Shown here in pieces: positions 4,392 through 22,858 of a DNA stretch of 64,000 bases. Origin of the DNA: Rhodothermales bacterium. Lineage in GTDB: Bacteria; Bacteroidota; Rhodothermia; Rhodothermales; Bin80. The position numbers and the translations under genes are program-made. The notes below the pieces were generated by a model that made no database searches, had not been told where the DNA came from, and saw only the letters and a list, made by a program, of their open reading frames with translations. The DNA lies in the NCBI GenBank assembly GCA_965203305.1, contig OZ241874.1:3697687-3761686 (forward strand). The letters run 5' to 3'. Every line of letters begins with the position of its first letter. Position 1 is the first letter of the stretch.

Positions 4392-4929
4392 GGGTGTAAC
4401 TTGAACGCGCCTCATGCGGACCCATTGATACGAATTCCGCTGTTCTTGCCTGTGAAGCAAGGTCTGGCTGGATTGCCGAGGGAATCATCGTATGCCGGAC
4501 ATCAACTTCGTGCCACATAAGGGCCCGCCTTCAACCTTGATGTAATCAGATTTGGAGTATTGTGGGAGCCTGACATACCCTTCTCCCCGAAAGAGGATTT
4601 CTGCTGCGTACAGGCGTGGCACTATTGAGCCACATTCAAAACGCTTCAGAGGGTTTCTGTTGCTGACAGCCAATACTGTCCGCTGCCCGGGCAAACGGGA
4701 GCATGCCATGCCTCTGTTTCACTAATATACAAAACGCAGAGGGCTTTTGTTCACATCAAGAGGCTGCCCGCTCATTAACAAGAGTTTCTGTCCTGTCATG
4801 TTCACCGGAAGAACGAAGTGATTTTTGCAGTTTATTAAATCTGCTAGCCCAAATCAGGCACATCACAAGGGTTGTCACGTTAAACGGGGAAATTAACTGG
4901 CCAGCTCTTCTCTGCTGCAATCATTTAGA

Positions 4930-6836: not shown

Positions 6837-8789
6837 ATGTGCATGATTACAACTCCGCCAGAATCATCACACAGTCCCCAGCTGGACTCCAGGGTGCCAT
6901 CCGGTCACCTTCAGGAGAAGTGGGATATTTACAAGAATGCCGTCTCCCTAGTGAGTCCGGCCAACAAGCGTTCTCACCATGTTCTCGTTGTGGGATCTGG
7001 ACTGGCTGGTGCCTCTGCCACTGCCACGCTTGCCGGGCTGGGCTACAATGTGACCTGCTTCTGTATTCAGGACTCTGCTAGAAGGGCCCACTCAATTGCA
7101 GCACAGGGCGGAATCAATGCGGCAAAGAACTATCCAAATGACGGAGACACCGTCTGGCGACTCTTCTATGATACCATAAAAGGAGGAGATTATCGCTCAA
7201 GAGAGGCAAATGTCTACCGGCTTGCTCAGGTGTCCAACAATATTATTGACCAGGCGGTAGCCCAGGGGGTTCCTTTCGCCCGCGAGTATGGAGGAGTCCT
7301 CTCCAATCGTTCCTTTGGCGGTGCACAGGTTTCGCGCACCTTCTATGCAAGGGGCCAGACAGGACAACAACTCCTGCTCGGGGCCTACCAGGCACTCAGC
7401 CATCAGATTGCTGCAGGGCGTGTAAAAATGCTGCCTCGCAGAGAGATGGTTGATCTGGTTGTAACCAATGACCGTGCCAGCGGAGTCATCATACGGAACC
7501 TGATTACCGGCGAACTGGAGCGGTATGCAGGCGATGCTGTCCTGCTCTGCACCGGAGGGTATGGCAATGTGTACTATCTGTCCACGAATGCCAAAAATTC
7601 CAACGTGACCGCAGCGTGGCGCTGCCACAGGCGGGGAGCATTTTTCGCCAATCCGTGCTATACCCAGATTCATCCAACATGTATCCCGGTTTCGGGGGAC
7701 TATCAGTCCAAGCTCACACTGATGAGCGAAAGCCTGCGGAATGACGGCCGGGTATGGGTTCCAAAAGATCCGAAAGACACCCGTGCACCGGAACTGATCC
7801 CGGAGGATGCACGGGATTACTATCTGGAACGACGCTATCCCAGCTTTGGCAACCTCGTCCCCAGAGATGTGGCCTCACGGGCCTCAAAGAAAGAATGTGA
7901 TGCCGGCCGGGGCGTTGGGGAGACACGGCTTGCTGTCTATCTTGATTTTCGGGATTCCATTCAGCGTCTGGGGGAGCAGACGATCCGGGAACGCTATGGA
8001 AATCTCTTCGAGATGTACGAGCGCATCACCGGCGATAATCCATACAGGACCCCCATGCGGATCTACCCGGCAGTACACTACACAATGGGCGGGCTGTGGG
8101 TAGATTACGAGCTTCAGAGCACAGTGCCAGGACTGTTCGTGCTTGGAGAGGCAAACTTTAGCGATCACGGGGCCAACCGGCTGGGGGCGAGTGCACTGAT
8201 GCAGGGACTGGCGGATGGATACTTTGTAATCCCGTACACGCTTGGAGCCTATCTGGCAGGGACCAGTCAGTCGGAACAGGTTCCTGAAACACACGACAGT
8301 TTTGCTGCTGTAGAAGAGGAAGCCGGAGCAAGGATTGACCGAATGCTCACGAACAGGGGAAACAAGTCGCCAACCCAGTTTCACCGTGAGCTGGGCCGTC
8401 TGGTCTGGGACCACATCGGAATGGCACGAAATCGTAGCGGACTGGAATCCTCTCTCCGTGCCATTGAAAATCTAAAAGAAGAATTCTGGGAACGCGTCCG
8501 CGTACCGGGATCCGCCAGCAGATACAACAAGAACCTGGAATTTGCCGGACGTGTCGCTGATTTTATTGAGCTGGGTGCTCTGATGGCGCGAGATGCGCTC
8601 TGGCGGGAAGAATCCTGCGGGGGACATTTTCGTGAAGAGTATCAGACTCCCGAAGGAGAAGCAGCACGGAATGACGAGAAGTTTGCAAATGTCGCGGCAT
8701 GGGAGTATAACGGAAGCGGGGATCCCGTACTGCATCGTGAAGAGCTTGCCTTTGAAAATGTGGAGCCATCCAAACGCAGCTATAAATAG
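6837..8789 (+). CDS. sdhA: Succinate dehydrogenase / fumarate reductase flavoprotein subunit
   Basis: FAD-binding [11 protein letters not shown] and the [12 protein letters not shown] covalent-FAD histidine segment. 650 aa. Confidence 0.9.
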
Positions 8790-10937: not shown

Positions 10938-11540
10938 ATGGATATGCCTGTGATACTCACTGCCCTTGTCAGCCGTATGGAGAAGATCACGGACTTCTTC
11001 GGAAAGCTGACATGGTACTGTATCCTCCTGATGGTCATCACAGGAGCCTATAATGCGATTGTGCGCTCCCTCTCTGGCTGGGCACACATTGATCCAGAAA
11101 GTGCCAGTTCATCGGAGAAAGTTCTCCATTGGATCGGAGAAATAGCCAGGCAGGGAAGCTCCAACACATTTATTGAGCTCCAGTGGTATCTCTTCAGCGT
11201 CGTTTTTCTCCTGGGAGCAGCATATGCACTGAAAACGGATGCACATGTACGGGTGGACATCTTTTACAACCGTACCTCCTCGGCCACAAAATCATGGATC
11301 AACATCACTGGCACCCTGATCTTCCTCCTTCCGTTTTGCGGACTGATGCTCTGGTCTGCTTTGCCTGTTGTTGTGGACTCATGGGCACGACTGGAAGGCT
11401 CGCCTGATCCGGGAGGCCTGCCCCGCTACCCTCTGCTGACGATTGTGCCACTGGCATTTATCGTGCTGATGGCACAGGGGCTGGCGATTGCGGCTCGCGA
11501 GGCACTTCACCTTTTTGATTCCAGACATGCCGGGACTTGA
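10938..11540 (+). CDS. TRAP transporter small permease (DctQ-type)
   Basis: 200-aa, 4-TM-like ORF. It overlaps the start of the large permease by 14 bp. Confidence 0.75.
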   Translation: MDMPVILTALVSRMEKITDFFGKLTWYCILLMVITGAYNAIVRSLSGWAHIDPESASSSEKVLHWIGEIARQGSSNTFIELQWYLFSVVFLLGAAYALKTDAHVRVDIFYNRTSSATKSWINITGTLIFLLPFCGLMLWSALPVVVDSWARLEGSPDPGGLPRYPLLTIVPLAFIVLMAQGLAIAAREALHLFDSRHAGT

Positions 11541-12876
11541 GTGGCTGGCACCGCTCATGTTTGCGGTGGCTCTGATTCTGATCTTCTCAGGCTACCCGGT
11601 AGCCTTTTCCCTTGGAGGAGCTTCTCTCATTTTTGCCTTTATTGGCATCAGTACCGGCTATTTTGACTGGCATCTGATGCTTGCATTGCCGGACCGCCTG
11701 TTCGGCATCATGTCAAATTACACGCTTCTGGCAGTCCCGTTTTTTATTTTCATGGGGACCATGCTGGAGAAGAGCAACCTTGCACGGGACCTGCTCCATA
11801 CCATCGGGCTTCTTTTTGGCCCTGTTCGGGGAGGGCTGGCAATCGCTGTCATTCTTGTGGGCGTACTCCTTGCAGCAGCAACAGGAATTGTTGGTGCAAG
11901 CGTCGTGGCCATGGGGATGATCTCTCTCCCCATAATGCTCAAGAATGGATATTCCAAGGAACTGTCTGCCGGCGTGATCACAGCAACCGGAACACTGGGA
12001 CAGATCATCCCGCCTAGCGTCGTTCTGGTTGTACTTGCCGATCAACTGGGAGTATCTGTCGGTGACCTCTTCATTGGTGCACTGGTTCCTGGCATTCTCC
12101 TTGCTGTCCTGTATGGCTTGTACACGGCTGGAATTGCCATCTTCCAGCCATCTGCAGCCCCCGCCATTCCCCAGACAGTGCGGGATCATGAACATGGAGA
12201 GTTGCTGCGCAAAGTCTTTCTGGTCATGCTTCCCCCTCTCCTGCTCATTCTTGTCGTTCTGGGAAGCATTTTTGTCGGGATTGCTACCCCTACCGAATCA
12301 GGTGCACTGGGAGCCGTTGGAGCAATCGGACTGGCAGCACTGAACAGGCGGCTGAACAAAAAGGCTTTATTGCGAACCATGGAAGAAACCGCCAAACTCA
12401 CGGCCATGGTCATGATGCTCCTGATCGCCTCTACTGCATTTGCACTGGTCTTCCGGGGGCTGGATGGCGGGATCTGGATTGAAGACCTGCTGATCAATCT
12501 TCCCGGAGGAGTGATTGGTTTCCTGATTCTTGCAAACCTCGCCATCTTCATTCTGGGGTTCTTTATTGACTTCTTTGAGATTGCATTCATTATTATCCCC
12601 CTCATGGTCCTTCCCGCAGCCCACCTGCTAAGTCCGATGCTCGGGGTACCGGAAAGTACCGCACTGGTCTGGTTTGGCGTAATGGTCGGGATGAACCTTC
12701 AGACCTCTTTCCTGACCCCGCCGTTCGGGTTTGCTCTCTTTTATCTCCGGGGCGTGGCTCCACCGAAGCTGAAAACTGAATCCATCTATCGCGGCACAAT
12801 CCCTTTTATTGCGATCCAGGTGATCGGACTGATTCTGCTGATCCTGGTACCAGACCTAGTTCTCTGGGCACTCTAG
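11527..12876 (+). CDS. TRAP transporter large permease (DctM-type)
   Basis: I trimmed the start to ATG 11527 (MPGLEWLAPLMF). Long polytopic protein typical of the DctM family. Confidence 0.85.
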   Translation: MPGLEWLAPLMFAVALILIFSGYPVAFSLGGASLIFAFIGISTGYFDWHLMLALPDRLFGIMSNYTLLAVPFFIFMGTMLEKSNLARDLLHTIGLLFGPVRGGLAIAVILVGVLLAAATGIVGASVVAMGMISLPIMLKNGYSKELSAGVITATGTLGQIIPPSVVLVVLADQLGVSVGDLFIGALVPGILLAVLYGLYTAGIAIFQPSAAPAIPQTVRDHEHGELLRKVFLVMLPPLLLILVVLGSIFVGIATPTESGALGAVGAIGLAALNRRLNKKALLRTMEETAKLTAMVMMLLIASTAFALVFRGLDGGIWIEDLLINLPGGVIGFLILANLAIFILGFFIDFFEIAFIIIPLMVLPAAHLLSPMLGVPESTALVWFGVMVGMNLQTSFLTPPFGFALFYLRGVAPPKLKTESIYRGTIPFIAIQVIGLILLILVPDLVLWAL

Positions 12877-13997
12877 CCTGCTTGGGAACCGGGATTTATG
12901 CGTGCATTCATGTACGAGAGCATCTCGTGTTCTGCGGTGTGGATCCACGCATCTGAATCACGCCGCCATGCCAGAAAAGAATCATGTACGCGAGCAAATT
13001 CGGGATCACTGCGTTTCTCCTGCAAAAGATCCTGCGCGGCCGTGTACGCTGCATCCATGACATCCCGTGGAAACGGACGCAGTTCAATATCAGAATCCAG
13101 AATCCTCTGAAATGCCGGCGGGTTGAGGGCATCATACCTCGCGAGCATATACTGGTTGGCTTCGGCCATTGCCACCTCAAGGGCTGCCTGATATGCAGAT
13201 GGAAGCCCCTGCATGGCATCCCTGTTCACAAAGAAGGACAGGTTCGCCGATGGCTCCCACCACCCGGGGTAATAGTAGTAACTGGCAATCTGATTAAATC
13301 CAAGCTTCTCGTCATCATAGGGACCGATCCATTCCGCTGCATCAATCGCCCCCCGCTCCAGGGAAGTATAGATTTCTCCGCCGGGAATCTGCTGTACCGT
13401 GACCCCCAGCTGATCCATGACTCCGCCTCCAAGGCCCGGAATGCGCATGGAAAGTCCGTTCAGGTCTATCACACTGTTGATTTCCCGGTTGAACCATCCT
13501 CCCATCTGCGTGCCTGTATTTCCTCCGGGATAGTTGAGGACACCATAGTCTGCGAACAGTTCCCGCAATACTGACTGTCCGCCTCCCTCATAGACCCAGC
13601 TGTTGAACTGACGTGCGGTCAGTCCAAAAGGAACGGTCGTATCAAATGCAAATGCCTGATTCTTTCCGATGTAATAATATCCAGCCGAGTGCCCCATTTG
13701 GACCGTACCCTTTTGCACGGAGTCCAGGACTTCAAATGCCGGAACGATCTCTCCGGCCGGATAGACGCGGATGGTAAATCTGCCGTCTGTCAATTGGCGG
13801 ACACGATTGCTCATCACCTCGGCTGCTCCGTAAATCGTATCCAGAGAGCGGGCAAAGCTTGATACAAGTTGCCATCGGAGTGTCGGGTTGCCTGTCTGGA
13901 CAGCGGGAGAATCGGTATTCCGAGTGCTGCATCCGGCAAGAACAGTTCCTGCCGCGGCACCCAGAGTAGCTGATCGGATAAATTTTCTGCGTTTCAT
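12873..13997 (-). CDS. TRAP transporter substrate-binding protein (DctP family) with Tat/lipoprotein-like signal
   Basis: MKRRKFIRSATLGAAAGTVLAGCS signal. 374 aa. Convergent with the permease genes. Confidence 0.8.
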   Translation of the reverse strand: MKRRKFIRSATLGAAAGTVLAGCSTRNTDSPAVQTGNPTLRWQLVSSFARSLDTIYGAAEVMSNRVRQLTDGRFTIRVYPAGEIVPAFEVLDSVQKGTVQMGHSAGYYYIGKNQAFAFDTTVPFGLTARQFNSWVYEGGGQSVLRELFADYGVLNYPGGNTGTQMGGWFNREINSVIDLNGLSMRIPGLGGGVMDQLGVTVQQIPGGEIYTSLERGAIDAAEWIGPYDDEKLGFNQIASYYYYPGWWEPSANLSFFVNRDAMQGLPSAYQAALEVAMAEANQYMLARYDALNPPAFQRILDSDIELRPFPRDVMDAAYTAAQDLLQEKRSDPEFARVHDSFLAWRRDSDAWIHTAEHEMLSYMNARINPGSQAG

Positions 13998-14005
13998 TCC
14001 AAGGG

Positions 14006-14713
14006 TTATCCTCGTGGGCGAAGAGGCCGCATGACGACCTCGGAAATCAAATAATTGTCTGGTGACTGCAGTACATGAATCACCGTGCTTGCAACATCTT
14101 GTACCTGCATGGGATTCGGCGCGCCCGAAGAGCCTGCAACCTGCCCAAATTCGGTGGCAACGCTTCCTGGACAGACACAGGTAACCTTGATTCCGTCACC
14201 CCGCAACTCTTTCATGGTTGCCTCACTGAATCCTCGCAGTCCGAATTTCGTTGCGTTGTATGCACTCAGGTTCGCATTGCCAACCAGACCTGCAACAGAT
14301 GCGATATGAACAATATGACCTCCAAATCCTGCCTGCTTGTTCTGTGCTTTCATCAGCGGGACCACCGCACGAGTACACAGATACACTCCCGTCAAATTTG
14401 TATCTATCTGTATGTCCCAGTCCTCTTTCGTCTGGTCATCAATCCGGGCGAACCGTCCAAGTCCGGCATTATTGATCAGGATATCCACACGATCCAGGCT
14501 GGAAAACGCATCCCTGACTGAGGCTGAATCAGTTACATCACACGCAACCGGCTGAAATCCCGAGCCTAGTTCAGACTCCAGTGCTTTCAGGCGATTCAGT
14601 CTCCGTGCAAGTCCATAGACTCTGCTGCCATGCTCCACCAGATGACGAGAGAATTCGCTCCCAAGCCCGCTACTGGCCCCGGTGACGACAGCAACTTTGT
14701 TGCGTAAATTCAT
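14006..14713 (-). CDS. SDR-family oxidoreductase
   Basis: I trimmed the start to ATG 14713 (MNLRNKVAVVTGASSGLGSEF, which contains TGxxxGxG). NNAG motif and the YxxxK active site (SAYNATK). Confidence 0.85.
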   Translation of the reverse strand: MNLRNKVAVVTGASSGLGSEFSRHLVEHGSRVYGLARRLNRLKALESELGSGFQPVACDVTDSASVRDAFSSLDRVDILINNAGLGRFARIDDQTKEDWDIQIDTNLTGVYLCTRAVVPLMKAQNKQAGFGGHIVHIASVAGLVGNANLSAYNATKFGLRGFSEATMKELRGDGIKVTCVCPGSVATEFGQVAGSSGAPNPMQVQDVASTVIHVLQSPDNYLISEVVMRPLRPRG

Positions 14714-14773
14714 GTGAGCTCTGTCTGGAACTGATTTCTTGAACTCTAGCTCTGTATACCTGTTCGCTCTTGA

Positions 14774-15970
14774 ATGGACAGCACATCCCTGAGAACAGAT
14801 TTTGCCCGGCATCTTGCTTGGACAAGTGATCATCCCCTTGGCTTTGAAGTGGAGCGAGCGGAGGGATCACTTCTCTTTTTGACGGGCGGAAAGCGTCTCA
14901 TTGACTTCATCAGCGGAATTGCGGTCTCATCCGTGGGACATCGGCATCCAAGTGTTCTGCATGCAATTCGTACGCAGCTTGACCGGCACCTGCATGTCAT
15001 GGTCTATGGAGAATTTATTCAGGCACCGCAGGTGCAGTTTTGCAGGCACCTGACAGATGTCCTGCCAGCTTCGCTTGACTGCGTCTATCTTACGATGTCA
15101 GGAACCGAAGCGAATGAGGGTTCGCTCAAACTGGCCAAGAAATACACCAGGCGCAGTCACATGATCGCCTTTGAGCGATCTTATCATGGAGATACTCATG
15201 GATCTCTGAGCGTCACGGGAAGGCGTATTTATCAGGATTCCTTTCGTCCACTCTTGCCAGACATAACCTTTTTGCCGTTTGGAGATTTTGAGGCACTGGA
15301 TGCCATTGATGATCGGGTGGCATGTGTAATTGCGGAGCCCATTCAGGGAGAGGGAGGAATGCGTGTCCCTCCTGCGGGATGGTTTCGGGCCTTGCGCTCC
15401 CGGTGTACTTCCACGGGAAGTCTCCTGATTCTGGATGAGATCCAGACTGGCTTTGGACGAACCGGTCATCTGTTTGCCTTTGAGCATGAAGGGATTACTC
15501 CCGATATCCTCACCCTTGCCAAGGCGATGGGAGGCGGGATGCCGCTCGGCGCATTTGTGTCCAGTACCGAAAAAATGAAAGCCCTGCGAGATGATCCACC
15601 ATTAAGCCATGTCACAACGTTTGGCGGTCATCCTGTATCCTGTGCTGCGGCAGACGCGGCATTGCAGGTCATCCTGGACGAAGATCTGGCAGAGCGGGCA
15701 GTCTGGATAGGAGAACGAGTCCGATCAAAACTCAAGCACGCAGCGATAAAGGATTTGCGCGGGCGAGGGGCCATGCTGGGCATGGATCTGCCAAGTACAT
15801 CAACTGCCGAACAGGTTGTGAAAACCTGCCTTGATCATGGAGTTCTTCTGGGATGGACGCTTCACTCGGGGACCGTGATCCGAATCGCCCCTCCACTCAA
15901 TATTCCCGAGGACATTCTGGATGAAGCGATAGAAGTGATCGTAAAGGCATTGGATTATCTCACCGAATAG
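14774..15970 (+). CDS. Class-III PLP-dependent aminotransferase (acetylornithine/GABA aminotransferase family)
   Basis: AEPIQGEGG, LILDEIQTGFGRTG and the TLAKAMGGG PLP-lysine segment. Confidence 0.85.
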   Translation: MDSTSLRTDFARHLAWTSDHPLGFEVERAEGSLLFLTGGKRLIDFISGIAVSSVGHRHPSVLHAIRTQLDRHLHVMVYGEFIQAPQVQFCRHLTDVLPASLDCVYLTMSGTEANEGSLKLAKKYTRRSHMIAFERSYHGDTHGSLSVTGRRIYQDSFRPLLPDITFLPFGDFEALDAIDDRVACVIAEPIQGEGGMRVPPAGWFRALRSRCTSTGSLLILDEIQTGFGRTGHLFAFEHEGITPDILTLAKAMGGGMPLGAFVSSTEKMKALRDDPPLSHVTTFGGHPVSCAAADAALQVILDEDLAERAVWIGERVRSKLKHAAIKDLRGRGAMLGMDLPSTSTAEQVVKTCLDHGVLLGWTLHSGTVIRIAPPLNIPEDILDEAIEVIVKALDYLTE

Positions 15971-15984
15971 CACAGATGTGTGCT
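15969..15984. terminator. Short hairpin between convergent stop codons (possible bidirectional terminator)
   Basis: agcaca-gatg-tgtgct (6-bp stem, 4-nt loop) occupies the 15-bp spacer between the aminotransferase TAG and the DUF5131 TGA. There is no T-tract, so the call is weak. Confidence 0.25.
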
Positions 15985-15985
15985 G

Positions 15986-16696
15986 TCAATGTGCAGGCAT
16001 CTGATCCCATGTCCGGCCATCCAGTATGCGCCCCGTCCGCTTCTTGAATACGCCGCCCCACTGCTTGAAAAAGAATGGCACCTGTTCCAGCACACAGATA
16101 TCCCGGATTTCCCTCACCCATTCTTTTTCCATTGGCCTGGCACCCGGCCCAGACTCTCCTCCCACAATAACCCAGTCAACCCCTCGCACTGGAATGTCTG
16201 GAAGTGGTGCAAGTAGCGGCTCGAGTGACAGGAATTTGGTCTGTGCATTCGTCTGTTTGAGTTCTTCCAGACGGAACTGCCACCGCGGAGATTCAATACT
16301 GGTTCCAAGCCAGATATTCGGACTCCAGTTCAGGCTTTCTTCCACCTCGAGAACGCGACTCGGCCTCTTGGTCAGCACCTGAAATGTATGTTGTGATGCC
16401 TGATTCATCGTCCTGAAAACGGCCTGAATAAACGACTCGTCAACTTCTTCATGAAAGAGGTCCGACATGGAATTGACGAACACCAGGCGTGGCTTGCGCC
16501 ATGTGAGAGGGTCTCCCAGTGTCTGCGGATGCATGGTGACCGCAAATCCGTTGTGGTACTTCTCTACCCCCATAGCTTGCAACCTGCCAGACATGCGCTC
16601 TGCATAGCAGAATTTGCATCCGTGACTGATCTTGGTGCATCCGGTAACCGGATTCCAGGTCGTTTCTGTCCACTCAATACCTGATCGTGTTGACAT
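15986..16696 (-). CDS. Phage Gp37/Gp68-family protein (DUF5131)
   Basis: N-terminus SGIEWTETTWNPVTGCTKISHGCKFCYAE contains C-x7-C-x2-C. Also VLTKRP, SLEPLL and WVIVGGESGPGARP segments. It lies 2 bp downstream of the TcmP-like ORF, the known partner arrangement. Confidence 0.8.
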   Translation of the reverse strand: MSTRSGIEWTETTWNPVTGCTKISHGCKFCYAERMSGRLQAMGVEKYHNGFAVTMHPQTLGDPLTWRKPRLVFVNSMSDLFHEEVDESFIQAVFRTMNQASQHTFQVLTKRPSRVLEVEESLNWSPNIWLGTSIESPRWQFRLEELKQTNAQTKFLSLEPLLAPLPDIPVRGVDWVIVGGESGPGARPMEKEWVREIRDICVLEQVPFFFKQWGGVFKKRTGRILDGRTWDQMPAH

Positions 16697-16698
16697 GT

Positions 16699-17562
16699 CT
16701 ACAACCCATTAACTGGATCAAGAAGATGCTCGGCAATTCGCTTTGCAACCCCAATGGCAGCCGGCGCGTCACTGCCCACGCAAAATATAAGATCGTACAA
16801 AGGTGAGTTCCTCGAATTTCTGAGTGTCTTGGACTGATCAAGAAACCGTTCGGCAAACAATTCCCTGAGTCTGCCCTTGTAGATGCCAATCAGATTGTTT
16901 ACGCCGGATACTCGCTCAAACCGATGCTCCCCAGTAAAAAGTTGAGGAATCTCCTGATACAGGTTTTTCCAACTGTCATTACCATAAATCCTCGTCAATG
17001 TCTGAGCGAACTTTGGGGAGATATCCTCTGGGGTCCTATTCATGGGCAGCATTCGGGCAACCGTGGATGCAGGAAAAAGAATCTAGGTATCAAGTGCTTT
17101 ATACTCGGCAATTATCTTCAGAGTACTCCAGTCAACTTGTGCCCCGAATGGATCAAGGAAAAGCACTCCTCTACTGTTCCGCCAATCTCTCCTCAAGGTC
17201 TGGAGAGATTCATTTGCATCAGCTCTCTTCACAGTGATTCTCCTGCCAGGCTTCTCTGTACACAGTCTCTTCAATTTTGAACATCTCTCCTCATCTTGCT
17301 CAATGAAGATCAACTCGTCAAAGTGCTTATCTTTAATGTCCAGAGCTATCCTGGCAGATCCATCAATGAATTTAATTTGGTCAGGATCCTGATTTTTCAA
17401 CTCAACCATACCAGTGCCGGCAAAGGCATCAATATACAGGAGCTCAAACGGTTTATCCTTGAGAGCAGTTGTATATGCATTGAGGTAATTTCTGAGAATC
17501 TCAAGCTTTTCTCGAGTCCAGTTTCCACCGAATGAGGCTTTACTTTTGCTGGCCATAGTCAA
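16699..17562 (-). pseudogene. tcmP: Three-Cys-motif partner protein TcmP, interrupted by a single in-frame TAG (17083-17085)
   Basis: The track ORFs 17083..17562 and 16699..17052 are in the same frame. Translation across the junction reads ...AEYKALDT*ILFPASTVARMLPMNRT. The N-terminus GNWTREKLEILRNYLNAYTTAL, LYIDAFAGTG and LFLDPFG fit the TcmP family. Confidence 0.7.
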
Positions 17563-17639
17563 TAGTCAATTCTCTAAGGGGAACTACACAGAAGGCATGG
17601 TGCTATGTCAGTAACTGACTACACGAATGAAGAATAGAC

Positions 17640-18545
17640 TTATCCTGCTCTGTCAGCATATCGTATCCCGGTTGCAAGAACACATGCCAGATTCACAGGA
17701 ACAGCATTTCCGATCTGCTTCTCCACGCTTGTATTTCGGTTGTCTGCTTTCCAGTCCCATTCCTTGGGAAAAGTCTGTATCCGACTTCTCTCAAATGATG
17801 TGAGTGCTCTTACCGTGGACGGAGGAGCACTATCCAGACGATTGCCTTGATAACCCGGGGGCACAGGGCGATTGACTCCCCGAATTGTGGGAGATGGCTC
17901 GTATACTGAGAAGACAGATCTGCGCGAATAATTTCTGGGATGCCGATAGTAAAAATCTATTTCAATATCTCTCCCGAAATACTCCTTTACGGTCAGACTT
18001 TTTTCGGAGATGTTCTTTTTGACAAACTGAGCAAACCTAGCCGCTACATTCTTTCTGAGGGATCCAAAAGCAAAAAAACGCTTTCTTGACTGCGGAACCC
18101 CATAGTGACATGCATCCAGTATAATCTCGGCAATTTCGTACCCGCTTGCAATCAGGATCTCTTTTGTTTCTGTGTAGGCTCCGCTCCGACGAACTTGAGG
18201 AACATTTTCCATCAGAAAAAACTGGGGAGTACATTTTGTAACGATCTCGCCAAAAGCATTGGTCAGATTTGCCCGATATCCCTCAACTCTTTTGCCAGCA
18301 CTGGAAAAGTCTTGGCAGGGAGGACCTCCCGCTATAATGTCAGGACAAAGAGAGACTATTTGGAAGGTAGCTGTGTCCGTATCTGCAAGATCAATCTGCG
18401 CGACATGATCTGACAAGTTCCTCCGATATGTGTTAATGGCATCCCGCCAATTATCAAATGCTCCAACTACATCAATTCCCCCATCTATAAATCCTGCACT
18501 GAGCCCTCCCGCACCACAAAATAAATCTACTGCTGAAAGTGCCAT
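17640..18545 (-). CDS. dcm: DNA (cytosine-5)-methyltransferase
   Basis: Motif I DLFCGAGG, motif IV GGPPCQDFS, motif VI MENV, motif VIII QSRKR and motif X GNAVPV. Confidence 0.9.
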   Translation of the reverse strand: MALSAVDLFCGAGGLSAGFIDGGIDVVGAFDNWRDAINTYRRNLSDHVAQIDLADTDTATFQIVSLCPDIIAGGPPCQDFSSAGKRVEGYRANLTNAFGEIVTKCTPQFFLMENVPQVRRSGAYTETKEILIASGYEIAEIILDACHYGVPQSRKRFFAFGSLRKNVAARFAQFVKKNISEKSLTVKEYFGRDIEIDFYYRHPRNYSRRSVFSVYEPSPTIRGVNRPVPPGYQGNRLDSAPPSTVRALTSFERSRIQTFPKEWDWKADNRNTSVEKQIGNAVPVNLACVLATGIRYADRAG

Positions 18546-18713
18546 GATAAGGGGTGTACCCTGTAGTTATGGGCTACCTGTCCAGGAATTTATGCCATTT
18601 CCAGCGAATAGCAAATTCGCTAACCGCATGGAAAATGATACCATCAAGTTTTATGATATATGTTATATACTCTCTTTGTGATAAAGTTGCAACATATCGT
18701 ATGCCCAAAATAA

Positions 18714-19015
18714 ATGGGAATTATCCAGTAAAATCCGCAAGGCGGGAAAATGGAGAGAGGTTATCTCTCCATCCCCATGTCTGTATCCCGATCACTGTTG
18801 GAAGGGTCTCTGCCCGGTGGAGGTTCCTGACCAGAATTGTCTTTCTCCGATTTGCGGATCGTGGGTTCTTTTCCCTCCTCTTTTTCAGGAGAGGGACTGT
18901 CTGGAATATGGTTTCCCGCTTCCTTTTGGGGACCCTCCGCCTCAGACTGGTCTTTTGACTCCGGCTGTTGCCCGGAAACATCTCTGGTAGGGTGGCGACT
19001 TGCCTGTCTCTGTTT
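18714..19015. repeat. Right copy of the ~290-bp inverted repeat (reverse complement of 271-558); the 28-nt motif lies at 18714-18741
   Basis: The reverse complement of 18714-18741 is cttgcggattttactggataattcccat, 25/28 identical to 531-558. The coding tail matches copy 1 as described there. Confidence 0.8.
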
Positions 19016-20155
19016 CCCGATCTCTTCATCGCGCAATCTGGCCTCCCGAATCCGACCGGCTTTTTCTGTCAGGTAGTCATACAGGGAGGGGATGGGGATT
19101 GTGTAGGAGTCCTTGTAGCGGTGGAGAACGCCTTTCGACACCGCCTTCTCAAACCCTGCTTTCCCCAGGTACCGTATAATGCCCGCCTCGCTGAGTCCCT
19201 TTCTCGCTCGAGGGCTGCGGAACATCTCCTCCAGACGGAGAACATGATCATCTTTCAGCCCTTTCGTCCGGGCTTCATAGTATTCCAGGCGTTCTTCCCG
19301 CCCAGTCTCAATGACGATACGCAGCAACTCCGGGGTCATCCTCCCACCGTTTTCCTTAAGTATCTGTCCGGCATTCCGGGCATAGGAATCAACATGTCTG
19401 GGCCACAGATACGTTTCTTGGGTGATGGCATCAATCCACGCGGTGGTGTCTCCCTTTGCCTTCCCTGCCCCAAGCCAGTCATCTATCACGGCTCTTTCTT
19501 CTTCCTTTTTCAGGGGTTGCATGTCAAACCTGCATCGTGCAGCCAACCGGGATATCCCCAGTGATCTGAATGCCTCATCGGTCATCCCCAGTCCACCAGC
19601 GAGGAGTATCACGGGCTTCCCCAACTCTCCATTGTGAATCTCCGTCAGAAGATCGCTGACCTCGTCTTTGTACGGTCCATTGATATTTTTGCTTTCTCCC
19701 ATACGCTGGGCCTCGTCCAGAATCAAGAGGAGCGGGTCCTTTATTTTCTGGATCAGGCTCTTGGGGGTGACCTTCGGGGTGGCTTTTTTTGTCGTTCGTG
19801 ATAGCCCCCCTTCGAGGGATGCCCCAAAGTATTCCACTTTCCCGCCACCCCCGGTGGTTTTTTCTGTGGTGATCTCTTTCTTCTTCATCCCCAGACACTC
19901 CGCCATCGAGTCTGGATCCCACAAGGCCGTGACGACAAGTTTTCGGACCTCCCACTTCTCTCTCTTTGCCTTCTTCCAGCATTCGGCCAGCAGGGCCGAC
20001 TTGCCGATCCCCGGCGGCCCTTGCACAAGGAAGATGGTCCCTTCGTTATTTTTTTTGTCGTCCCGCAGCCTGTTCTCAAAGCTGTCCAGTATGGGGGTGC
20101 GCCCGTGGAAGTAGGGGGTGGCTCCACGGTCTGTGGATTTTCGAAGCGGGTCCAT
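18761..20155 (-). CDS. ORC/Cdc6-like (AAA_16-type, STAND-related) P-loop ATPase with a Pro/Glu/Ser-rich C-terminal tail
   Basis: FHGRTPILDSFENRL followed by Walker A (GPPGIGKS) and Walker B (LLLILDEAQ). The C-terminal part is helical and wHTH-like. The low-complexity tail is shared with the paralog at 1..525. Confidence 0.75.
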   Translation of the reverse strand: MDPLRKSTDRGATPYFHGRTPILDSFENRLRDDKKNNEGTIFLVQGPPGIGKSALLAECWKKAKREKWEVRKLVVTALWDPDSMAECLGMKKKEITTEKTTGGGGKVEYFGASLEGGLSRTTKKATPKVTPKSLIQKIKDPLLLILDEAQRMGESKNINGPYKDEVSDLLTEIHNGELGKPVILLAGGLGMTDEAFRSLGISRLAARCRFDMQPLKKEEERAVIDDWLGAGKAKGDTTAWIDAITQETYLWPRHVDSYARNAGQILKENGGRMTPELLRIVIETGREERLEYYEARTKGLKDDHVLRLEEMFRSPRARKGLSEAGIIRYLGKAGFEKAVSKGVLHRYKDSYTIPIPSLYDYLTEKAGRIREARLRDEEIGKQRQASRHPTRDVSGQQPESKDQSEAEGPQKEAGNHIPDSPSPEKEEGKEPTIRKSEKDNSGQEPPPGRDPSNSDRDTDMGMER

Positions 20156-20214
20156 GGTTCCTGCCGTAACTGGTCAAAAAAAGACTACCCTTCGGAGCAC
20201 AGTCTGTTCCCGCA

Positions 20215-20242
20215 CTTGCGGATTTTGCGGGATAAATCCCAA
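20215..20242. repeat. Third copy of the 28-nt hairpin motif, upstream of the ATPase and inverted relative to copy 2
   Basis: cttgcggattttgcgggataaatcccaa is 27/28 identical to 531-558. The preceding ttcccgc is also shared with copy 2. Confidence 0.8.
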
Positions 20243-20249
20243 ATAAATA

Positions 20250-22118
20250 GTGTCTGTCCGAAAACACGGGATATATGGGTTTGCGCTGGTTCCTGTGCGC
20301 ATTTTTGGGGATATTTCTTTTCTAAAGAAGTCCACTTTTTGGGGGATATGATCGTATAAGCCCTGAAACCCGTTCATCTTTTTCCTTTTGCTGAGATGAG
20401 AAAAGTCATTGAACCTCAACTTGAGATTGGATGGAAGCCTCTGGAAGAGATCACGCTGCCCCTTCACAATCGGGATGATTTCTATCTGTGCATGACGGCC
20501 ATTTTGCATCTTTACCATGATGTTTTGCTGCGTGCGCGTCTGTTTTCCCGGTTGGCGGAGATTTTTCCTGCGGGGGTTCGGACGGATCGGGGGCGTCCGG
20601 GGATGTTTGCATGGCGCATCTTCGTGCTGGGGGTGCTGAAGCAGGTTCTTCGGTGCGACTATCAGAGACTGGCCATGCTGGCCACGGAAGTGCAGGTTTT
20701 GCGACAGATTCTGTTCCATTCCGAATTTGACGATACGGTCTACTGTCCGCAGACCTTGCAGGACAATCTTTCTCTTCTGACCTCCGAGATTCTGGCAGAA
20801 TTCATTCAAATGGTGGCAGAGTGCGGACAGAAGGTGGCGGGAAAGCAGGAGGGGGAGGTGTTGCAGGGGCGGTGCGATTCCAAGGTGTGCAAGACCAATG
20901 TGGAGTTTCCCTCTGATCTGCGCCTTCTTCGGGATTCTGTCTGCGGGGGACTTCGGGAATGTGCCAAAACCGCGGATGCGCTGGATGTACCGGGCTGGCA
21001 GCAGATACAGCATCTGATGAAGACGGTAGAGAAGGCCCACAAGCCGGTATGTATCGCCAGGAAATACAAATCCCGTCCGGGCAAGGTTCGCTATTTCTTG
21101 CGTCTGTGTCGGAAGCGGGGCAGAAAAGTAGTGGACTTTCTGCGGAACCTGCATGACAGGAAAACAGAGCTGGAGCGGAAACAGGCAACGGGTTCGCTCA
21201 CCAAGGCGGAAGAGAAGATGCTGAACACCGTGCTCCGTGCGATGCAGCGAATCTATTCTTTTCTGGGGTATATGGCGGTATTGCACGATCAGGTGCGTCG
21301 TCGGGTCTTGCATGGAGAGAAGATTCCGCATCGTGAGAAGATATTTTCGATCACCAAGCCGTTTACCCGCTGGATCGTGAAAGGGAAAGAAGGGGTGCTG
21401 TGCGAGTTGGGGGTTCCGGTGGCGATTATAGAAGATCAGTACCCGTTTATTCTGGGGCATGAGATTCTGTGGACGGGGACGGACAAGGATGTGGCGGTCT
21501 CGCTCACGGGGAGCGTGCAGGAGCAGTTTCCTTCCCTGCGTGAATGTTCGTATGATCGGGGTTTTTACAGTCCGGAGGTTCGGGAGAAGTTGGATGAGAT
21601 GCTGGATGTGAATGCGATGCCGAAGAAAGGGAGGATGACGAAGGAAGAGCAGGAGCGGCAAAGCGATCCTGCCTTCCAGCGCGCAAGGAAACGCCATCCG
21701 GGCGTGGAATCCGCGCTGAACAACCTGGATCATCGGGGCTGGAATCTGGTGCGGGAAACAAGCCGGGAAGGCTTTGCCCGAGTCGTAGCGACCGCTATTC
21801 TGGCCGCCAATGTCCACCGACTGGGGAGGCTGCTCCGGGAACAGGAGATCATCAAGAAAGCGAAACGACGACGAAAGCTCGCCGCATAGGCGTGCATCCC
21901 CCCTTTCTTGCGGATTGACGAGGTGCCAAATTCAGGTGAATGCCAGAGGTACGTCCGATTCCTGCGAAGGAGGCACAAATGTACACCAATTCCCCCAAAA
22001 TCCGCCCTCAAAACGGGAAGAATCTCCCCACTCCAGTCCATTTTGCGTCCAATATGACAGGAGATCTGCCCCGCCCCTGTTGCCAGTTCCCGAAAATCGG
22101 CAATTTTCGGATGGACAC
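20250..22118 (+). mobile_element. Insertion sequence, ISNCY-family-like, 1869 bp, single transposase ORF
   Basis: Terminal inverted repeats GTGTCTGTCCGAAAA (20250-20264) and TTTTCGGATGGACAC (22104-22118) match at 13/15. They are flanked by the direct repeat TAAATA (20244-20249 and 22119-22124). Confidence 0.75.
20396..21889 (+). CDS. DDE transposase (ISNCY-family-like)
   Basis: N-terminus MRKVIEPQLEIGW...RGRPGMFAWRIFVLGVLKQVLRCDYQRLAMLA resembles ISNCY-type transposases as I recall them. Candidate catalytic segments are CDSKVCKTNVEFPSD, SYDRGFYS and HPGVESALNNL. Confidence 0.75.
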   Translation: MRKVIEPQLEIGWKPLEEITLPLHNRDDFYLCMTAILHLYHDVLLRARLFSRLAEIFPAGVRTDRGRPGMFAWRIFVLGVLKQVLRCDYQRLAMLATEVQVLRQILFHSEFDDTVYCPQTLQDNLSLLTSEILAEFIQMVAECGQKVAGKQEGEVLQGRCDSKVCKTNVEFPSDLRLLRDSVCGGLRECAKTADALDVPGWQQIQHLMKTVEKAHKPVCIARKYKSRPGKVRYFLRLCRKRGRKVVDFLRNLHDRKTELERKQATGSLTKAEEKMLNTVLRAMQRIYSFLGYMAVLHDQVRRRVLHGEKIPHREKIFSITKPFTRWIVKGKEGVLCELGVPVAIIEDQYPFILGHEILWTGTDKDVAVSLTGSVQEQFPSLRECSYDRGFYSPEVREKLDEMLDVNAMPKKGRMTKEEQERQSDPAFQRARKRHPGVESALNNLDHRGWNLVRETSREGFARVVATAILAANVHRLGRLLREQEIIKKAKRRRKLAA

Positions 22119-22363
22119 TAAATAGTGTCTCCAAAGGAAGTATAGAGGTGGTCAGGTACGATCCGTGGATCCCGAATACGGCAGAATGTGCTGATTTCTG
22201 GACCAATTGGTGCAGGCAGAAGTCATGTGGACTGCACTTTAGCCCACCAGCTTCATCCAGAGGATATTTGAAGCGTCTGTTACCAGCATCAGCAACTCCC
22301 GGACCTGCATGCGAAGATCATGCCCACGCTTTTAGATCCCATCGTTAGCAGAGTTGCTGGCCG

Positions 22364-22858
22364 TCAGGAAGATTCGTATACGACATTTACCTCAGTCCAG
22401 CTTGACTGATCCTCCTTCATGTATCGATTTACGATCTCTGATACCTCTGCAGGAATTTCAGCAGTGACCTCTCTGTCTGGTATCCTGTTCAGAATTTCCT
22501 GCACCCATGTACGCTGCAGAAGCTCATCCGTAATGTGCTGTGCGATGTACGGATACTCCCTCAAGAGTTCTTTTTCACTAATCGTGCCAAAGTCAATCTT
22601 GATCCGCGTGATGCGATCATGGGTGAGCCTCGCCCGAAAGGTCGCCCTCATCTTATAGGACCGCAGGATCGTCAGAATTGTCCTCGTCGAAATGGCAAGC
22701 ACAACTACCTGCATGTCCAAGTCAGGCAGAGTTATAGATACGTCCCTGAGATCGTCCCGATAGAACATGTGCCTGGCGGCATCCATGAACGGGGAAAAGT
22801 CGTCATATGGGCTGGCTATGGCTAGGGCATCCTTGCCTAAGCGATCTTTTTCTGGCAT
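22364..22858 (-). CDS. Hypothetical protein (164 aa)
   Basis: Clean ORF with ordinary composition. Same strand as the ATPase cassette and separated from it by the IS. No motif recognised. Confidence 0.4.
   Translation of the reverse strand: MPEKDRLGKDALAIASPYDDFSPFMDAARHMFYRDDLRDVSITLPDLDMQVVVLAISTRTILTILRSYKMRATFRARLTHDRITRIKIDFGTISEKELLREYPYIAQHITDELLQRTWVQEILNRIPDREVTAEIPAEVSEIVNRYMKEDQSSWTEVNVVYESS

Follow-up and report, generated by a model that had tools for sequence, protein, structure and literature searches.

A block of four minus-strand genes in a 64,000-nucleotide stretch of a Rhodothermales bacterium (assembly GCA_965203305.1, contig OZ241874.1, positions 3,697,687 to 3,761,686 of the forward strand; the whole stretch is called the window here) is probably a mosaic of independently acquired units and not a four-gene system, with two of the genes, TcmP and DUF5131, forming an S-adenosylmethionine (SAM)/radical-SAM-like conflict module. 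The open reading frames (ORFs) run head to tail and encode an ATPase (464 aa), a C5-cytosine DNA methyltransferase (Dcm, 301 aa), TcmP and DUF5131 (236 aa), as the first-pass annotation, made from the sequence alone, had described. In that annotation the four genes were further proposed to act as a single modification-linked self/non-self system, with the ATPase and the TcmP-DUF5131 pair substituting for a restriction nuclease.

The proposed system does not recur in the other loci examined. The ATPase, which had been counted as part of the module, belongs to a separately mobile, multi-copy cassette with a 97.8%-identical copy at an unrelated locus. A scan of one genome per species found at least 523 relatives of TcmP, and in the best 80 loci (L003-L082; 49-65% TcmP identity), which were examined, a C5-methylase was found within 8 kb of TcmP-DUF5131 in none, even at E ≤ 5. 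The converse search gave the same picture: among 23 relatives of Dcm from metagenome contigs, viewed with a reach of 6 kb, not one has TcmP, DUF5131 or the ATPase nearby. The pair itself had been described as conserved but with no assigned function. In a PADLOC search it matches the named candidates PDC-M41 and PDC-M30.

The block would have arisen in an insertion-prone stretch between an argD-like aminotransferase gene and the gyrB neighbourhood, which received separate units. The TcmP-DUF5131 pair would be a self-contained, horizontally mobile two-gene module (PDC-M41), here inactivated by a TGG→TAG change in TcmP. An M.HindV-like type II C5-methylase without an endonuclease would be the second unit and the 1.5-kb ATPase cassette, transposed into TTTATT upstream of Dcm, the third. 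The fourth would be an ISNCY-family insertion sequence (IS) that arrived after the cassette. The four-gene appearance would then be an adjacency accident in one lineage, where a transposon and an orphan methylase happen to lie next to a catalogued candidate pair.

The ATPase cassette

The boundaries of the cassette are defined by comparison with an unrelated site in a sister genome (L001). DNA homology between the two is restricted to positions 18716-20240 of the window (97.8% identity over 1,527 bp), and its edges fall within one base of the repeat ends at 18715 and 20241. The L001 locus encodes the 97%-identical ATPase homologue P0001 and is devoid of Dcm, TcmP and DUF5131. Each cassette copy carries its own 6-bp target duplication: TTTATT in the window and in the syntenic sister genome L002, GAAAAT in L001, and ATATTT around a 73% paralogue in L121. 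In L085, which harbours a 45% paralogue, the duplication is less exact (about CTAAT). The duplications are AT-rich, and the copies in the window, L001, L121 and L085 lie at non-homologous sites. The copies occupy 18709-20247 in the window (duplications included), 9915-11441 in L001, 2916-4436 in L121 and 3906-5340 in L085. The L085 element is 60% identical in its interior at the DNA level, whereas 24/27 and 21/27 bases are preserved at its two ends; being better conserved than the interior, the ends must be under separate selection.

Within the window the inverted repeat TGGGATTTATCCCGCAAAATCCGCAAG has three matches, where 0 are expected by chance. A second cassette copy, cut by the window start, sits among housekeeping genes (RNase E/G, citrate synthase, succinate dehydrogenase). 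The repeat consensus, GGGAWTTATCYNGYAAAATCCGCA, gave 0 matches in JGI metagenome contigs.

The protein is recognisable as a P-loop ATPase. The Walker A (GPPGIGKS) and Walker B (LLLILDEAQ) motifs reported in the annotation are present in the translation, and both segments are kept in 35 aligned paralogues, with P48, G49, G51, K52, D147, E148, A149 and Q150 invariant. The more specific ORC/Cdc6-like label holds weakly: AAA_16 is matched at 30.2 bits against a cut-off of 32.6, and the family profile matches Cdc6 in the PDB with E = 2.9e-4 over profile positions 15-64 only, the P-loop segment. IstB, TnsC and MuB are transposon helper ATPases; the profile matches IstB and TnsC weakly, at the level of the P-loop and no better than Cdc6/ORC. 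No PADLOC model matches the ATPase past the P-loop. The C-terminal ~90 codons (18761-19030) encode a low-complexity tail rich in Glu, Lys, Pro and Ser that ends in ...DRDTDMGMER, and a terminal G-x-E-R is kept in many paralogues even if the remaining tail differs or is missing.

Worldwide the family is small, with 748 representative clusters in 1.84 billion proteins, and it is strongly expanded in these genomes. A protein search detected dozens of paralogues (40-97% identity), and single genomes of 3.67 and 3.83 Mb contain many of these. An ATPase-only cassette may explain such expansions of paralogous "ATP-binding proteins".

The ATPase is the only ORF of the cassette, and no transposase match was obtained for it in Pfam, NCBIfam or PHROGs. 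Two neighbouring elements were rejected as the mobiliser. The ISNCY element has ends (TGTCCGAAAA...) unrelated to the cassette repeats, and the boundaries of a 1,959-bp DDE_Tnp_1 IS found near cassettes in L001, L002 and L123 do not coincide with the repeats. It is quite unlikely that the cassette is a previously undescribed autonomous transposable element, with the ATPase, or an unrecognised domain in its conserved C-terminal half, required for or catalysing mobility, and not a passenger that an unseen transposase moves.

Other arrangements of these sequences were also detected. In the paralogue subfamily of L122 (repeats at 2902-2928 and 4440-4466) and L123 (565-591, 2851-2877 and 4350-4376) the upstream repeat is direct, not inverted, relative to the downstream one. 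L123 also holds a repeat-bounded remnant of ~354 bp without the ATPase, split by the 1,959-bp DDE_Tnp_1 IS. The third Rhodothermales genome, L125, has three AAA_16 paralogues (1-226, 12269-13501 and 15317-16516) that are 39-54% identical to the window ATPase and lack inverted repeats; they lie within 8 kb of a DUF5131 gene in another arrangement, with TnpB/Cas12f-like, ISAZ013 and integrase genes alongside. The ATPase family accumulates in variable regions. An ATPase paralogue occurs near the pair in 3 of the 80 loci, all of them in Rhodothermales and ~7 kb away.

The IS that caps the block, as first noted, is an ISNCY element by its transposase (NF033593, 334.2 bits against a 325-bit cut-off). 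It is inserted 2 bp past the cassette inverted repeat and overlaps the target-site duplication of the cassette. In the sister genome L002 the ISNCY site is empty.

The methylase, the TcmP-DUF5131 pair and their decay

Dcm is complete, in agreement with the first description. PF00145 is covered over model positions 2-320 of 324, and FCGAGG, PPCQ, ENV, QSRKR and GNAVP can be read in the translation; the PADLOC model MTase_II is matched at 9e-110. The best annotated relatives are M.HindV-type methylases of small E. coli plasmids (50% identity over 97% of the length), where they adjoin a HindVP endonuclease gene. HindV recognises GRCGYC. A HindVP-like gene immediately precedes the methylase in the four closest of the 23 metagenomic relatives, and others are tandem methylases. 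No relatives were found among viral contigs. The statement that no endonuclease lies next to the methylase can be extended, as a HindVP homologue was not found anywhere in the window.

The flanks of Dcm are TcmP on one side and, on the other, 169 bp followed by the ATPase cassette. Since the target duplication of the cassette is intact, its insertion deleted nothing. The original intergenic DNA upstream of Dcm, roughly 410 bp, was searched for an endonuclease remnant and none was found. Judged by its sequence, Dcm is an orphan type II methylase, and a former partner endonuclease may have been lost.

The pair was identified with large margins. TcmP matches the PDC-M41A model PDLC04635 at 3.2e-71 over residues 7-282, and DUF5131 matches the PDC-M41B model PDLC04639 at 7e-115, with PDC-M30B also matched. 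DUF5131 further matches phrog_2045 and is 100% identical to P0241. The PDC systems are predictions made by "guilt-by-embedding" and are unvalidated (PMC10855318). The literature found on TcmP/DUF5131 consists of annotation mentions, a RadicalSAM.org table and PADLOC usage, and a functional study was not found. The description of TcmP-DUF5131 as a tightly conserved pair lacking a functional study is therefore borne out: DUF5131 directly follows TcmP in 80/80 loci, on the same strand in 79. These loci span more than 10 phyla and include Rhodothermales, Poribacteria, Nitrospirales, Dehalococcoidia, Acidobacteriota, Latescibacterota, Binatia and Proteobacteria. The two proteins differ in conservation, with homologues being 72-86% identical for DUF5131 and 49-69% for TcmP. 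Next to the closest TcmP homologue (67% identity) the pair stands alone, beside toxin-antitoxin genes.

TcmP is AT-rich throughout the family. Its GC (guanine plus cytosine) content lies below that of the flanks in 75 of the 80 loci, by ~10 points on average, and ~7 points under that of its partner DUF5131, which is 3.5 points below the flanks. The low GC of TcmP/DUF5131 is the signature of a mobile module. Low GC was also considered as a sign that Dcm and TcmP arrived jointly, and this was rejected, TcmP being AT-rich in those 75 loci whatever its neighbours. Because its low GC is family-wide, the AT-rich patch in the window is explained without co-acquisition with Dcm. The patch is also narrower than the block that the annotation had judged AT-rich by eye: the GC content is 0.451 for TcmP, 0.462 for Dcm and 0.373 for the spacer upstream of Dcm, but 0.529 for DUF5131 and 0.545 for the ATPase cassette, which match the flanks of the block (0.53-0.54, windowed GC).

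The window TcmP is a pseudogene. Its in-frame TAG replaces the codon of W160, a residue invariant in 20 and in 56 TcmP homologues. Over 11286-19714 the window agrees in 8,428 of 8,429 bases with L083, a low-coverage contig of a different sample, and the sole difference is that L083 has TGG at W160. In L083 TcmP is intact (285 aa), and the gene call there places the probable start of TcmP at the ATG at 17556. Either TAG and TGG represent natural knock-out and wild-type alleles, or one of the contigs contains an assembly error. If natural, the intact and nonsense alleles, one base apart in 8.4 kb, are a ready-made control.

Further damage is visible in relatives of the window. In the sister genome L002 (97% identical) TcmP has a +1 (T5→T6) frameshift, with the T6 run at about 10490 of L002, 7 nt downstream of the TAG position, and Dcm has an IS at its start and a 2.3-kb insertion with IS66 inside the gene. 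In L125 only the last 37 residues of TcmP are left (7882-7992), next to a DUF5131 that is 86% identical. TcmP was thus inactivated in three separate ways in related Rhodothermales, while the adjacent DUF5131 is intact and 86-100% identical. Among phage records DUF5131 is present in 181 and TcmP in 5. Given the TcmP losses and the DUF5131-rich phage records, DUF5131 is apparently retained without TcmP. As far as its sequence tells, the locus is decaying.

The coordinates of all features are collected in Table 1. The spacers between ATPase and Dcm (215 bp) and between TcmP and DUF5131 (2 bp) had been given correctly, as had the 15 bp from the end of the argD-like aminotransferase gene to the DUF5131 stop codon, where the orientation is convergent. 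The Dcm-TcmP spacer is 77 bp by the annotated ORF, but 83 bp when measured from the likely TcmP ATG. The 215-bp spacer also contains the 3' inverted repeat of the ATPase cassette. A hairpin had been reported in this spacer. A palindrome with a 7-bp stem does exist there and is probably the reported motif, but the folding of the spacer is ordinary (z = -1.4). The palindrome could be an operator, being one that is not statistically distinguished. No Rfam family and no tRNA were found in the 12-26 kb part of the window. An ORF of 164 aa on the far side of the IS was considered as an endonuclease or Vsr remnant and rejected: searches of Pfam, NCBIfam, PADLOC and PHROGs gave no match for it, and it is unrelated to the 164-aa ORF of L085.

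Table 1. Features of the block and its surroundings (window coordinates)
Feature	Position	Strand	Basis or remark
DUF5131 (phage Gp37/Gp68 family; PDC-M41B), intact, 236 aa	15986-16696	minus	PF07505 3e-97
TcmP (three-Cys-motif partner protein; PDC-M41A), pseudogene here	16699-17562	minus	TIGR04474, 171 vs 53-bit cut-off
In-frame TAG for TcmP invariant Trp160 (TGG)	17083-17085	minus	only interruption of TcmP
Dcm, complete C5-cytosine DNA methyltransferase, M.HindV-like, 301 aa	17640-18545	minus	PF00145 4e-55
Palindrome AGCGAAT-N5-ATTCGCT, perfect 7-bp stem	18603-18621		58-76 nt upstream of Dcm start; sequence
Target-site duplication TTTATT (minus-strand reading), 3' side	18709-18714
Transposable cassette, 1,527 bp, sole gene ATPase	18715-20241	minus	terminal repeats, target duplication, copies elsewhere
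Cassette 3' terminal inverted repeat, 27 nt	18715-18741		repeat search
ATPase, AAA_16 / ORC-Cdc6-like P-loop, 464 aa	18761-20155	minus	weak AAA_16 and AAA_22 matches
Cassette 5' terminal inverted repeat, 27 nt, TGGGATTTATCCCGCAAAATCCGCAAG on minus strand	20215-20241		repeat search
Target-site duplication TTTATT, 5' side	20242-20247
ISNCY 11-bp target duplication TAAATAGTGTC	20244-20254 and 22120-22130
ISNCY-family insertion sequence	20255-22119	plus	transposase ORF 20396-21889; terminal inverted repeats
orf164, 164-aa ORF	22364-22858	minus	between IS and glycosyltransferase; 98.8% conserved in sister genome
Second ATPase cassette copy, cut by window start	3-557	plus	same 3' repeat at 531-557

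Neighbourhoods and predicted chemistry of the pair

The immediate neighbours of the pair are heterogeneous and many are metabolic or housekeeping genes. Defence genes are nevertheless enriched beside it: N6_N4 methylases, type III Mod/Res (ResIII), GmrSD, type ISP, Mrr, TIR, AAA_15/21 and toxin-antitoxin genes. In 19 of the 80 loci, from several phyla, the pair is co-directional with type III-like genes or with Mrr-fused N6/N4 methylases, against a rough chance expectation of about one locus in 80. Eight of the 19 (L012, L014, L021, L028, L033, L052, L063 and L080) have the order Mod-TcmP-DUF5131-Res, with gaps as small as 0-9 bp. Three further loci have only a Mod fragment directly upstream of TcmP. 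The pair is followed by an N6/N4 methylase in L034, L037, L039, L059 and L072, with the Mrr_cat fusion confirmed in L034 and L059; in Dehalococcoidia the gene after the pair encodes an N6/N4 methylase with a fused Mrr nuclease domain.

The proposed link of the pair to DNA modification therefore stands in part. A link to DNA modification or restriction is plausible from these gene neighbourhoods, but the methylases concerned are type III Mod or Mrr-fused N6/N4 enzymes and not C5-methylases. A nuclease (Res or a fused Mrr domain) is recognisable in most of the methylase-linked loci, and there is no sign of the pair or the ATPase standing in for one. It is conceivable, though not the preferred reading, that TcmP-DUF5131 is a radical-SAM-based add-on for varied DNA methylases (type III Mod, Mrr-fused, Dcm here) that adds or reads a second DNA mark.

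Individual genomes provide additional contexts. On a plasmid of Nostoc sp. C052 (L092, 4823-6885) TcmP is divergent to a canonical PF04055 radical SAM protein, there is no DUF5131, and a BREX-1 system adjoins. In S. meliloti the pair neighbours the Hna defence gene, and its expression changes together with Hna in a nolR+ strain (PMC12445080). In Gordonia phage BaxterFox the lysogeny module has a TcmP-like "methyltransferase" (gp42; L091, 4977-5963) immediately after the immunity repressor. DUF5131 adjoins a TcmP-like gene in the temperate Gordonia phages Angelique (gp42 and gp43; L120, 3992-5844) and PantheRoc. The lysogeny module beside the immunity repressor is a typical place of prophage-encoded defence genes. 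Lytic modules of phages offer a different setting, where the neighbours of DUF5131 are an ASCE ATPase, an HNH endonuclease and a DNA methyltransferase.

The methyltransferase assignment of TcmP, proposed from motifs I and IV, is upheld. DAFAGTG (motif I), DAN (motif III) and LFLDPF (motif IV, DPF) are invariant, and the model of the 67% homologue P0121 (predicted local distance difference test, pLDDT, 79) has a class I SAM-methyltransferase fold. This model gave 85 PDB matches at E ≤ 1e-3, and nearly all among the matches listed are methyltransferases. The TcmP profile itself matches the PDB weakly (RsmD-like 2fhp, E = 0.008; RlmJ, 0.28). Membership in the RlmJ family was rejected: in an hhalign comparison with E. 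coli RlmJ the alignment is confined to motif I (probability 37%), and TcmP has DPF, not DPPF.

For DUF5131 the cysteine motif had been given as C-x7-C-x2-C. The actual spacing is C20-x6-C27-x2-C30. C20, C27 and C30 (Cx6CxFC), GGESG at 179-183 and C201 are invariant. RadicalSAM.org places DUF5131 among the radical-SAM subgroups, in megacluster 5 alongside spore photoproduct lyase (SPL) (PMC9477430). TIGR04471 is matched at 2.6e-19, which is below the model cut-off, and a search of the DUF5131 sequence against the PDB gave no match. The predicted structure (pLDDT 72) is an alpha/beta barrel-like fold, possibly a partial TIM barrel. Its Foldseek matches are marginal, with LipA at 5.6e-3, then BlsE, NifB and SPL amid generic TIM barrels. 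Sequence and model together point weakly to a radical-SAM-like enzyme.

A joint activity of the two proteins can be proposed. The Cx6CxFC triad of DUF5131 would be suited to an Fe-S cluster in a radical-SAM-like enzyme. TcmP would contribute a SAM-dependent methyltransferase fold, in which DPF may correspond to motif IV, DPP(Y/F), of nucleic-acid amino-methyltransferases. The two would be translationally coupled and would act jointly on a nucleic-acid base or nucleotide in phage-host conflict, with Dcm and the ATPase outside the TcmP-DUF5131 machine. The fold and motif assignments are shown, weakly for DUF5131, whereas the substrate, the product and the defence role of the pair are proposals.

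Competing explanations and known systems

The most serious alternative is that TcmP-DUF5131 has no defence role and serves phage- or plasmid-derived nucleic-acid modification or DNA metabolism, for example self-protective anti-restriction. DUF5131 would then be essential and TcmP a dispensable accessory, and the presence of the pair in defence islands would reflect shared insertion hotspots. We regard this as possible, with clearly the smaller chance. The excess of DUF5131 over TcmP in phage records and its lytic-module neighbours are in its favour, as are the three separate TcmP losses next to an intact DUF5131, the far better conservation of DUF5131 and the many housekeeping neighbours. What speaks for a conflict module instead is the strict adjacency of the two genes in all 80 cellular loci, their position beside the immunity repressor in temperate Gordonia phages, the enrichment of defence genes around them and the fact that the PADLOC embedding screen picked out the pair.

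A three-gene variant, in which the upstream methylase feeds or is read by the pair and the ATPase alone is the intruder, is unlikely. Dcm is co-directional and about 80 bp upstream of the pair, both Dcm and TcmP are AT-rich, and all three genes persist together in three genomes of this lineage; the 19 pairs on the same strand as an N6/N4 methylase, 8 of them between Mod and Res, make such an arrangement conceivable. However, the three genomes are one lineage, in which Dcm and TcmP were inactivated independently, and the family-wide low GC of TcmP is no sign of co-acquisition. Against it stand also the counts given at the outset (C5-methylase near 0/80 pairs, TcmP/DUF5131 near 0/23 Dcm relatives), and the nearest relatives of Dcm are enzymes of ordinary HindV-type restriction-modification systems.

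The original four-gene system is highly improbable: adjacency and shared orientation hold in the window and L002, and ATPase paralogues lie near the pair in some other Rhodothermales loci, but the ATPase has a cassette to itself, bounded by inverted repeats and a duplication, occurs at many unrelated sites and has no PADLOC match past the P-loop, methylase-linked pairs usually come with a recognisable nuclease, and among the loci examined the four genes are together nowhere else.

A mosaic with a conflict module is the explanation we prefer, and several observations weigh against it. ATPase paralogues are found within 8 kb of the pair in about 3/7 independent Rhodothermales loci. This proximity is somewhat above the copy-density expectation, with neither distance nor orientation conserved. 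Dcm-TcmP-DUF5131 is kept in all three lineage genomes at 97-100% identity, which counts as one observation, and a type III Mod lies directly upstream of TcmP and co-directional in 9/80 loci (fragments included). Dcm and the pair may therefore be functionally linked in this lineage. No transposase-bearing element with matching inverted repeats was found in the sequence examined. Instead of a true allele, the TAG may reflect an assembly error. The defence role of the PDC-M41 pair is a prediction. The radical-SAM assignment is weak: the spacing in DUF5131 is Cx6Cx2C and not the canonical CX3CX2C, PF04055 is not matched at E ≤ 0.01, the pLDDT of the Cys loop is <50 and the Foldseek E-values are 5e-3 or worse.

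Under the preferred explanation, the window pair is a new, broken member of a catalogued candidate. TcmP-DUF5131 is now defined as an autonomous AT-rich two-gene module that moves between phyla, with an unusually conserved DUF5131. Of lasting use should be the ATPase-only cassette, the embedding of the pair in type III/Mrr-type operons, the loss of TcmP with DUF5131 kept, and the allele pair.

Each unit can be compared with known systems. The window genes match the PDC-M41/PDC-M30 candidates (the "three-Cys-motif" pair of TIGR04474 TcmP and PF07505) in family, adjacency, direction and the 2-bp gap, but the premature stop in gene A means that the two genes are not both intact. Dcm resembles M.HindV/HindVP systems in its 50% identity over 97% of the length and in all C5-methylase motifs. 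It differs in that the endonuclease adjoins the methylase in the closest relatives and no HindVP-like endonuclease is present in the window. Compared with type III Mod-Res operons, the window has the same same-strand order of methylase, TcmP and DUF5131 as L012, L014, L021, L033 and L080, but its methylase is of the unrelated C5 class and the Res or Mrr nuclease of such operons is absent.

Mobile insertion cassettes, for example MIC231 of Bacillus cereus, belong to the non-autonomous elements with inverted repeats, which contain passenger genes and are mobilised in trans. The ATPase cassette is like them in its inverted repeats, target duplications, many unrelated sites and lack of a recognisable transposase, but its passenger is always one ATPase family, across copies down to 45% protein identity. 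Two-enzyme routes to modified bases, in which a class I SAM methyltransferase is joined by a radical SAM enzyme, include Trm5 + TYW1 (wybutosine synthesis) and RlmN/Cfr, and SPL is a radical SAM enzyme that acts on DNA. TcmP and DUF5131 are comparable to these routes in the methyltransferase fold of the former and in the Cys triad, possible partial TIM barrel and radical-SAM listing of the latter, while the non-canonical Cys spacing, the missing PF04055 match and the marginal structural likeness set DUF5131 apart.

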